64,000 nucleotides of DNA from Flaccisagitta enflata (taxonomy: Eukaryota), in the NCBI GenBank assembly GCA_965153355.1, contig OZ231126.1:26350001-26414000 (forward strand), given 5' to 3'. The notes under the pieces are model-generated. The model saw only the letters and a program-made list of their open reading frames with translations, did not search any database and was not told the DNA's origin. The stretch's first letter is position 1. Each line of letters starts with the position of its first letter. The translations under genes and the position numbers were made by a program. Below, one piece after another: positions 38,104 to 41,100 of this stretch.

Positions 38104-41100
38104 CTAAAACTTATTCTTGCTGTGGGCATGCTCCGCTTTATGCCTCTGAAACCAGTCTTCTTTGCAGCATTCCACGCTGCAATACAGCATTCTCTCCTCA
38201 ACCCTCCTCTCTTTCTTGCATTTGACGCAAGTGAGAAAAGTGTGAGGCTCCATCTCGACTTTCTTACAGATTCTGCACTGAGCAACAACAATCATTGAGA
38301 AGTCGTCGTCCATCGAATGAATTTCAGACATTTTCGACGCGATCGAAAACGGGTCGGAGATGCCGCTGTCTTCCGAAAGAGATCGCGTACGGGGAGCTTC
38401 CCCAACTCGTTTGTCAACAGCATCTTCGGCATCCTGAAGGATTTCCGATAATCTTTTGCCGGAACCATTTTCTTTAGAGACGAAGGCAAAGGCAGTGTCG
38501 GCGGCATTTTCAAGGTCGCCGACTTGCCGGAATTCGTCTTCATCCATGATTAGAGGACTTGATTTTCCCGAATCAGGAGGCGGTTGACTTGCGGAAGAAG
38601 TGAAGGAAGTAGTTGGTGAAGCTGTTGAATGGTACTCTGGCGGAATCACTAAGGATTTCTTTCTCTGGCTAGGATGTCTCGCCTGTCTAGCTGGAGCTTT
38701 CTGATCTTTGGTTTCATTCAATTTGCCCTTTCTGTCATCAACTTGACCCTTCTCGTTTCCCATATTTTCGCTCTTTACTTCATCACTTGATTTGGCTTCT
38801 CCATCATTTTGTCGCGTCGCATTTCTGCCTTTAGAGTAGACTTTTTGTCGGGTTTTTGTTTTGGTCCACATTCTTTTTCTCGTATTTCCCCATTCTTTTA
38901 AAACTTCCTCCGGCTTTTTCTTGGATGGCTCCTCCGAAAAATTGTTTACCCAATTGTAAATGGAAGACGCAAATGAGGTTAAAGCGATTAGGAACCGCCG
39001 AAGGCAGGAGGATAGCCACCAAATGCCACCATAAATGGCATGAATCACTTCCCACATGATTTTTTCAATGAACCAAATGCAAACACGTACGATGAATGAG
39101 AGAGAGAATATGAAGAGGCCTATAACGATTTTGACGAAAAGTTTTGCGCACATTAAAATCAACTTGCTTAAGTTGATCACACAAGCCATAATCGCCATCC
39201 CAGCACTCAAAATCATGATGAAAATTCCCGCGAGGTTGCCCAGTATGCCCAGGACAAACTCGATGGGCCCTTGGAGAATTGATAATGGGAAATATTGCAG
39301 TATCCACGAGTCGACGGCTTTCTTTTTTATCTCGATGATGCGAGTTTCAATCAATGGATTTATATCGCGGTTATTATCGAATGAAAAGATGAAAAGATCA
39401 ATCAATAGACTAATGCACATCCAACCGGGTGAAGACATGATTATCGTGTAAATGATTATTTTAGAAACCGCGTTGGAATCTAAAGGATCGTTGTTGGACT
39501 GCCGCGCATCTACAAGATTCCACTTGGAACGAGTGCTTCCTCCCCAGTTGCTGGAATTGAATACAAGTCCTCTATATTTATCCCCAGGTATCAAAAGGCA
39601 TCTCACCTTACTATCCTCCGTGGTCAAAGTCTCGTAAACTTCCTTATGAGTTATTCCGATAATTGTGTCATTGGTGTAGGCTAAGAATCCATAATCGCTG
39701 AGTTCCCCGAATAACTGAAGTCGGTTATTTTCCTTGATGTAATCCATATCGCATCTCCACTCTGGTTCTTTTTTCTTGTCTCTCAGCAAATCTAAGGCGC
39801 ACTGTCGATCTCCTCCCGATAAAATCCTGTCATCATCTAATCTCCGATCCATTAAATCGAAATCGCAATACAGCTTTTTGGTTTCAAAGTCGCGGTATTG
39901 ACAAAATTGCCGGGAGAACCATTTAAGACTAATTTTGCCCGAGTTGAGATGAAACTGAAAATAATTAGAGTCGAAGAGTCTTTCATAATCGATGCCAGGT
40001 AGAGCCGAAAGATCGAGGTAAGCCGAAAAACGCATTTTGATAGATAAAGAGGTTGGATCATCAAATTTTACATATGGATTAGTATGTTGCGCCTCTAAAG
40101 TGCGCCGTCCGAGGGGGAAGTGACCAATCCAATCTATTTCCACGCCCCGAGGCTTCTTTTCAAATACAGGCGTCACAATCAAGTAAGATACTTCAAACGT
40201 TTTGAGATCTATGCCCGTTAGAAACGCGGTAGATTGATTTCCCAAAACATGCAGGTTGTCCATAGCCTTTTGCCCGAGCAGATTTCCATAGATAACCTTT
40301 GCCTCAAGTTCAAGAGCCAACTTTTCAATCAAACCCAGAGTCTCAGATGGTTGAATTGGGTAGCCATTTAACGCGATCTTCTCTCTGTAAGAAAGTGTGT
40401 TGTTCCATGCTCTAAAATTGGAAAAGTGCCCATCTAGAAAATCCTGTACAGCTTCAATCAAATCTTTCAGATCAGCCTTTTTAGGACCTTCTATTAATTT
40501 CGCGGTGTTGAAGAGACTTACTAGTTGATGGGTCTCTTCGGCGTTGGAAGCATTTAATACCCAATTTTTCAACTGATTATTGTTGACTTTTTGGTGTTTG
40601 GTGATTCGGATGGTTTTGTCCATTTCCCACGTAGCGATGTCTTTCTCATCCCCGCCACCGAGGCTATCATAGACGGGCGTCGCATAACGCAGGAAATCTC
40701 GCCATTTTTCAGGTTTGATGCCGATTTTTGACGGAGTTGGGGGACCAAAAGATTTGCCATGATCAGGGTCTACATCAGACGAAGTCGATTCAAATTCCAG
40801 TTCATCATAAAAGCAGCCCAAGATGTTGTCACTTTTTACGATGGATGACACACGAGGGTTGCAACGTTTACGATCGTCACTGAACAGAGGGTCAATGTCA
40901 CGGTGAGTGCCGATGATCACATCTTCTGGCGAATGAGCTGAATTCAACAAGTCCTTACTGTTGCTTTTGTCGTCGTTATTATGGTTGACATTGTTGAGAA
41001 CATCAAAGCTGTCGTTGTTCAATGCATTGATGTTGTTATCATTATTCAAATCCCGATTTTGACTGCGATTTACGACATTCAAGTCACTATATTCGCGCCT

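Follow-up and report, generated by a model that had tools for sequence, protein, structure and literature searches.

A MYND-like C6H2 finger at the C-terminus of two paralogous orphan proteins with the layout of membrane glycoproteins in Flaccisagitta enflata DNA

The DNA analysed here is a stretch of 64,000 nucleotides (nt) from Flaccisagitta enflata (assembly GCA_965153355.1, contig OZ231126.1, positions 26,350,001 to 26,414,000 of the forward strand), referred to below as the window and numbered from its first letter. It contains two long genes, A and A', the products of which end in a Cys/His cluster resembling the MYND-type zinc finger (zf-MYND). The two genes are paralogues, with 40% identity over 1019 aligned positions of their products, the last 98 residues being 78% identical. 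In both of them, one uninterrupted open reading frame (ORF) joins the finger to an N-terminal hydrophobic leader, an ectodomain-like part and hydrophobic segments, as had been proposed in the initial annotation of this DNA. That annotation had also placed the finger-bearing end of A at 38104-38285, which is correct; these positions correspond, on the minus strand, to residues 1220-1279 of A and the stop codon. The locus presents a known type of finger in an undescribed, orphan membrane context; at this stage it is a well-documented curiosity rather than a demonstrated mechanism.

The finger has the same pattern in A and A', C-x2-C-x12-C-x2-C-x12-C-x3-C-x8-H-x3-H. The candidate ligands in A are C1223, C1226, C1239, C1242, C1255, C1259, H1268 and H1272, of which the first seven, C1223 to H1268, stand in the order of the C4-C2HC arrangement of MYND. 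The pattern originally given, CxxC-x12-CxxC-x11, was exact except for its second spacer, which is x12 and not x11, and the His seen in place of the last Cys is indeed present (His1272 in A, His969 in A'). MYND domains are described in the available part of PMC3555993 as modules of 40-60 residues, often terminal, with C4-C2HC ligands in a cross-brace, which bind proline-rich peptides; a Gln and a Trp past the sixth ligand touch the proline-rich partner. The Trp that packs on the proline of this partner in ETO and DEAF-1 (same part of PMC3555993) is W1264 in A. When a permissive MYND-type regular expression was applied to the six frames of the window, only two sites were found, those in A and A', and there were none in 100 triplet-shuffled windows.

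A match to the zf-MYND profile had been suggested as a check on the annotation, and both proteins did match it over nearly the full model, with scores lying under the curated cut-off. The Pfam profile (PF01753) was aligned to residues 1223-1271 of A with an expected value (E) of 0.0012 and 19.3 bits, and to A' with E 0.003 and 18.0 bits, the alignment covering positions 1-38 of the 39 in the model in each case; zf-MYND was the only family that Pfam reported at the C-terminus. Since the alignment stops at model position 38, the unmatched final position would fall on His1272. A search of PDB with a 55-amino-acid (aa) finger query gave 12 matches with E up to 10, 11 of them to SMYD2 in its MYND region (E 1.2-1.5); YCSVECCKEDWFQRHKAE is aligned there with YCNVECQKEDWP-MHKLE, with one extra residue before the first His in our finger. 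In a protein-atlas search with the finger, the three nearest clusters were all zf-MYND (scores of 0.86, 0.85 and 0.84), which serve as leads only. From these comparisons, we read the finger as a divergent one of the MYND type, in a C6H2 variant that we call MYND-like, and there is a fair probability that it works like a MYND finger.

The N-terminus of A is a signal-peptide-like leader, the Kyte-Doolittle hydropathy of which reaches its maximum, 2.18, over residues 15-37. Upstream of the Met shared with A', the two genes have in common a peptide-level similarity, LKRI[CS]FKM (41911-41943 in A; 58307-58333 in A'), so that A probably starts at Met12, or else this is a conserved 5' leader. The N-terminal domain, which is conserved, is followed in A by a poly-Asn tract, and in-frame GTT/TGT microsatellites read as such tracts were noted in A, A' and B' (41188-41515, 57841-57916, 61759-61850 and 62250-62342), B' being a neighbouring gene treated below. 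Nine Cys are conserved in the ectodomain, six in the core and three (C49, C92 and C140) in the N-terminal domain, and four sequons of the core (N464, N514, N569 and N758) are common to A and A'. The ratio of nonsynonymous to synonymous substitutions (dN/dS) of the core against A' is 0.15, with dS saturated. Just ahead of the core lies a basic cluster, DDRKR (40864-40878 in A; 57533-57547 in A'), which may be a convertase site; the stretch downstream of it is not hydrophobic.

Very few relatives were found. In a word-indexed search of 5.8 billion proteins with residues 230-976 of A', the single match was P0005, an ENA protein of 905 aa that is 75% identical to A over 911 positions, keeps the frame for 895 codons and carries DNRRR at the basic cluster. 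A profile search of 1.84 billion representatives returned only P0005 and a 147-aa fragment, P0006. Pfam gave no family on the ectodomain of A, and one chance-level family in one of the three members scanned; no relative of the A family was found in the JGI metagenome contigs, and no usable match was obtained in the protein atlas with the ectodomain. A degenerate DNA pattern for CCKEDWFQRHK matched neither metagenome nor viral contigs, and the finger alone, searched against longer proteins, gave one candidate, none being scored. An AlphaFold2 (AF2) model of full-length A', built from 3 sequences, was unusable, with a mean predicted local distance difference test (pLDDT) score of 29.2. In a limited literature search, covering titles and the starts of abstracts, no relevant paper on MYND with membrane or envelope glycoproteins was seen, which does not show the architecture to be unpublished; a search on MYND with C6H2 and methionine aminopeptidase found nothing. 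Within the Pfam, protein-set and ectodomain searches run, the architecture fits no described family, in agreement with the initial annotation. The ectodomain of A and A' is an orphan, and the unusual architecture is real.

Past the core, the hydrophobic region of A consists of a first segment (residues 829-853), an 81-residue block (884-964) and a weaker last segment, and is followed by a charged linker; linker and tail are very strongly conserved between A and P0005. Compared with these two, A' lacks about 56 aa of the hydrophobic region and about 180 aa of the linker, and it carries a tandem duplication within the former. At the level of the predicted proteins, the membrane part of the A family is structurally plastic. 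The four sequons common to A and A' are all found before the first membrane segment; of the conserved Cys outside the finger, which number 11, 9 are also on that side. Basic residues are frequent further on: the loop past the first hydrophobic segment of A' has 8 Lys and Arg against 3 Asp and Glu, the first 50 tail residues contain 14 Lys and Arg in A and 13 in P0005, and 14-15 of 58 residues of the finger are Lys or Arg. The leader, the shared sequons and Cys, the hydrophobic segments and the basic loop and tail together fit an ectodomain outside the cell and a tail inside it. Placement of the finger in the cytosol is helped by the need of Cys-rich zinc modules for a reducing compartment, and we infer from the sequences that the finger is cytosolic. 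A PPEY motif (PPxY) was also noted in the tail of A, at residues 1101-1104 (38632-38643), in a block that P0005 shares without change; A' has no PPEY. P[TS]AP was found in no member of the family.

Table 1. Genes and features of the A and B families in the window
Feature	Position	Strand	Description
Gene A	38104-41943	minus	single unbroken ORF, 1279 codons plus stop
Gene A'	55376-58306	minus	paralogue of A, 976 codons plus stop, same architecture
A, signal-peptide-like hydrophobic leader and probable start Met12	41839-41910	minus	residues 12-35; aligns with the start of A'
A, poly-Asn tract	41188-41515	minus	in-frame (GTT)109 microsatellite after the N-terminal domain
A, conserved ectodomain-like core	39460-40941	minus	residues 335-828, about 490 residues
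A, hydrophobic, putative membrane-spanning region	38947-39459	minus	residues 829-999; from hydropathy
A, charged Ser-rich linker	38281-38946	minus	residues 1000-1221; strongly conserved in P0005
A, MYND-like C6H2 finger	38128-38277	minus	residues 1223-1272 (C1223 to H1272), CRICKKVEMEPHTFLTCVKCKKERRVEERMLYCSVECCKEDWFQRHKAEH
A', MYND-like C6H2 finger	55400-55549	minus	pattern identical to that of the A finger
Near-identical block, second half of the finger	38125-38233 (A), 55397-55505 (A')	minus	1 of 109 nt differs
A', tandem duplication of 120 nt	55699-55927	minus	about 1.9 copies of a 40-aa unit in the hydrophobic region (its last unit)
Gene B'	59158-62814	minus	two ORFs separated by 265 bp (intron or break), upstream of A'; no finger
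Gene B	45480-50410	minus	copy of B', lying upstream of A and fragmented (2.6-kb gap, frame change); no finger

Over 59 codons the fingers of A and A' are 92% identical, with a dS of only 0.29, compared with values elsewhere in the gene that range from 1.2 to above 2 (saturated), so that A and A' do not amount to two independent tests of the MYND pattern. The second half of the finger falls in a near-identical block, on both sides of which A and A' have diverged, the 3' untranslated region becoming unalignable some 10-20 nt past the stop; DNA k-mer depth roughly doubles across the block. Such a distribution of differences suggests that the block is probably a short, recent tract of gene conversion between paralogues 17 kb apart. 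A local RNA structure as the cause of the identity had a signal too weak to decide (z -2.67; 2 of 200 shuffles equally stable). Outside the tract the picture is different. All eight ligand positions are common to A and A', and the first three Cys are also present in P0005, in which the non-ligand residues I1225 (to H or V), E1232 (to V) and H1234 (to Q) have changed. The Cys kept outside the conversion tract in A, A' and P0005, among varying neighbours, are the better evidence of constraint.

A DNA contig of organism A (run X1), the label of the DNA runs containing the stretch, which is also contained in several marine metagenomes, leaves the sequence of A at 38210, within the finger. On hand translation it continues in frame with DTNKSVEERML where A has ERRVEERML, and is therefore probably a third copy of the finger, or an allele, with a loop two residues longer. 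Over the segments measured, dN/dS between A and A' is 0.15-0.41. The intact frames, these ratios and the conservation of P0005 indicate that the A genes are, or recently were, functional.

In the reading that we favour, and to which we give about an even chance of being right, A and A' are membrane glycoproteins with a cytosolic tail ending in a MYND-like docking finger. They would form a small, lineage-restricted family in a marine eukaryote, laid out as a cleavable leader, a large ectodomain with Cys and sequons, several hydrophobic segments, a charged tail and the terminal C6H2 finger of MYND type. The finger would bind two zinc ions in a cross-brace on the cytosolic side and, acting as an adaptor, would hold a cytosolic partner at the tail, by which the surface protein could be coupled to the machinery of trafficking, turnover or signalling. 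The PPEY motif in the tail of A and of its orthologue P0005 would fit such a role, being of the kind that recruits WW-domain ubiquitin ligases.

Several observations weigh against this reading, and most of them concern the finger. The zf-MYND scores of 19.3 and 18.0 bits are both under the curated cut-off of 22.7 bits, probably because the loops have 11 residues more than the 39-position model, and the eighth ligand is His, not the Cys of MYND. Since the curated score is not reached and the terminal Cys is missing, we did not assign the finger to the zf-MYND family. Cys1260 stands where the peptide site of ETO and DEAF-1 has Gln, and no PxLxP motif occurs in any family member. None of the PDB or atlas matches is significant alone, and when the PDB query was extended to 70 aa, 11 of 13 matches were to AKT PH domains at chance level (E 0.29-1.7), the other two being SMYD2 and the finger chain 7sek of methionine aminopeptidase 1 (MetAP1). 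An AF2 model of the last 75 residues, from an alignment of 2 sequences, was likewise unusable (mean pLDDT 46.0). The identity of the finger between A and A' is mostly that of the conversion tract and so is weak evidence of constraint. The ORF of P0005 diverges from A just past the third Cys (FLTCV) and reaches a stop 9 codons on; the cause may be a real truncation, an intron or a break of the assembly where the block is repeated. As regards topology, the number of membrane passes is ambiguous by hydropathy, 4 or 6 passes in A' putting the C-terminus outside, and the juxtamembrane tail of A' is net acidic, with 4 Lys and Arg vs 7 Asp and Glu. Finally, the RNA is uninformative: in about 6% of the polyA run X17 of organism A, amounting to 12.16 million reads, none fell on 37400-41180, a result that constitutes no test.

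Some of these points would be accommodated if the cluster were functionally not MYND but another zinc module, such as the C6H2 finger of MetAP1, or a disulfide knot in an extracellular C-terminus, which we consider unlikely. With its terminal His, the cluster has six Cys and two His, the ligand composition of zf-C6H2 (PF15801), and its loops are of 12 residues. The zf-C6H2 profile matched A' weakly (E 0.8, 10.3 bits vs a cut-off of 30 bits; A was not among the matches), 7sek was matched at E 0.44, the zf-MYND score is itself under its cut-off, and the counts of hydrophobic segments are compatible with a C-terminus outside. However, zf-MYND scores about 8-9 bits above zf-C6H2, with the full model covered, and the YCS-x-EC-x-x-DW-x-x-x-HK signature finds its counterpart in the SMYD2 alignment over the MYND region. 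The abundance of Lys and Arg in the finger and the strongly basic tail of A fit the cytosolic side.

Upstream of A and A' lie the genes B and B', respectively. The comparisons made support B as a distant paralogue of A: i) the N-domains of the A/B family gave a Smith-Waterman score of 73, which none of 500 shuffles reached (25.4 +/- 4.0), ii) the motif DFLxYxxPxYN scored 42 vs 21 +/- 4, likewise reached by none of 500 shuffles, and iii) the paralogy was seen with tblastn at E of about 3e-4 and with hhalign at E 0.0012 (probability 19.6%, 113 columns). Another Smith-Waterman comparison of the A and B N-domains gave no signal (a score of 25 vs 25.9, reached by 294 of 500 shuffles); the slice of B taken for it lacked the motif, and it is invalid for that reason. 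As B has no finger, the finger and the long tail are specific to the A branch. The set of 5.8 billion proteins contains two relatives of the B family. In the gap of B, an ORF of 226-231 aa (47022-47717) was noted, consisting of Gly/His/Arg/Asn/Thr repeats with an 18-nt period and matching no family.

The initial annotation had taken the ectodomain to be viral-like and had suggested that the protein could be a sensor or signalling receptor built from a viral envelope. The viral part of this was not supported, since there is no Pfam family on the ectodomain, no relative in IMG/VR and no gag-, pol- or capsid-type domain in 10 ORFs of the window; the MYND-like pattern, the single ORF and the undescribed architecture were borne out, and the viral origin was not. 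The env-like character is neither confirmed nor excluded, no test run having favoured it. With such an origin, the B-A pairs would be endogenous copies of envelope glycoproteins of a virus or virus-like element, in which the finger, and PPEY in A, would bind capsid, matrix or nucleoprotein for assembly or budding, as the zinc fingers in the cytoplasmic tail of hantavirus Gn may do. The ORFs are indeed long and apparently intronless, and are tandemly duplicated as B-A pairs on one strand. The leader, the large ectodomain with sequons and Cys and the membrane segments would suit an envelope, although this set is not specific to viral proteins; orphan status is frequent among fast-evolving viral glycoproteins, and a basic cluster lies ahead of the conserved core. 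PPEY is present in the tail of A, and zinc fingers in a glycoprotein tail have a precedent in hantavirus Gn, according to the available part of PMC3243910.

We nevertheless regard a viral envelope as improbable. Among 2.9 million viral contigs of IMG/VR, 66 pattern matches yielded 0 confirmed relatives, and no viral glycoprotein family of Pfam was matched. Ten other ORFs of the window have no meaningful domain, and in particular no gag, pol, reverse transcriptase, integrase, capsid or other viral domain. Between 36000 and 64000, only repeats due to the A/B paralogues and microsatellites were found, with no repeats resembling long terminal repeats around the pairs, the GC content of which is as in their flanks. 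The stretch past the basic cluster is unlike a fusion peptide in not being hydrophobic, and the full-length model of A' offers no usable fold. The MYND pattern is also unlike the dual CCHC fingers of Gn.

In another reading, which is quite improbable, A and A' are remnants that lack function or expression, and the finger has no present role. The neighbouring gene B is broken, microsatellites and duplications abound in the region, and the sole trace of RNA is one 151-nt contig of depth 2 in an oligo-dT metatranscriptome (X10), which matches 38331-38481 exactly and may be carry-over of DNA. However, open frames of 1279 and 976 codons are not expected to survive by chance, dN/dS is below 0.5 in each segment measured, and P0005, at 75% identity, holds its frame; the empty RNA run, being no test, takes nothing from this. 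In a last and very improbable reading, A descends from a virus and is an envelope-type glycoprotein that forms a self-contained module for budding or fusion. Its own tail would provide matrix-like functions through a PPxY late-domain motif and a terminal zinc finger, as in arenavirus Z, and it would work with the finger-less B; the host would have kept the tandem copies for fusion between cells, for the recognition of gametes or for transfer by vesicles.

Microsatellites and duplications make up most of what else was seen in the window, and no Rfam family was found in it. A tandem duplication of about 4.8 kb was noted, with near-identical twin ORFs at 18462-20580 and 23289-25381 lying among CT, GAAA and CA microsatellites.

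If a MYND-like finger is fixed on the tail of a surface glycoprotein that is large and evolves rapidly, as in the docking-finger reading that we favour, it would represent a new wiring of an extracellular domain to intracellular partners. Together with PPEY, the finger would provide a handle on what this orphan family, otherwise opaque, does in an organism of the marine plankton. Were the ectodomain a viral fusogen, A would be an unusual case of an envelope, domesticated or endogenous, that has its adaptor built in.

In soluble regulators of transcription and chromatin, MYND fingers are known to serve for docking. Compared with the zf-MYND of ETO, DEAF-1, BS69/ZMYND11 and SMYD2, the finger of A and A' is alike in the order and type of its first seven ligands, in its C-x2-C, C-x2-C, C-x3-C and H-x3-x units and in the YCS..C...DW...HK signature with the conserved Trp. 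It is also terminal, and its 50 residues are within the 40-60 given in the available part of PMC3555993. It differs in the His that forms its last ligand, in having both loops of 12 residues, in the residue inserted before the first His, in the Cys that replaces the peptide-site Gln in A and in its score under the Pfam cut-off. A further difference is that it is carried by a putative membrane glycoprotein, whereas MYND is normally found on soluble nuclear or cytosolic proteins. The zf-C6H2 of MetAP1 (PF15801) shares the C6H2 ligands ending in His and gives weak matches (A' and 7sek, as above), but its 10.3 bits, against a cut-off of 30, are lower than the zf-MYND score, and its protein context is entirely different.

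Two known proteins come near in arrangement. The fingers of hantavirus Gn are dual CCHC fingers and are not at the extreme C-terminus of the precursor. Gn resembles A and A' as a membrane glycoprotein whose cytosolic tail carries a zinc-binding module (PMC3243910, available part), the cytosolic side being probable in our case. In contrast to Gn, A and A' have no sequence relation to any viral protein in the Pfam and IMG/VR searches. The deubiquitinase USP19 is a membrane-attached protein with a MYND finger; it is tail-anchored and cytosolic, has the finger within its catalytic domain and has no ectodomain. A and A' thus have in common with USP19 a MYND-type finger on a protein that is probably membrane-attached, and differ from it in carrying a putative ectodomain.

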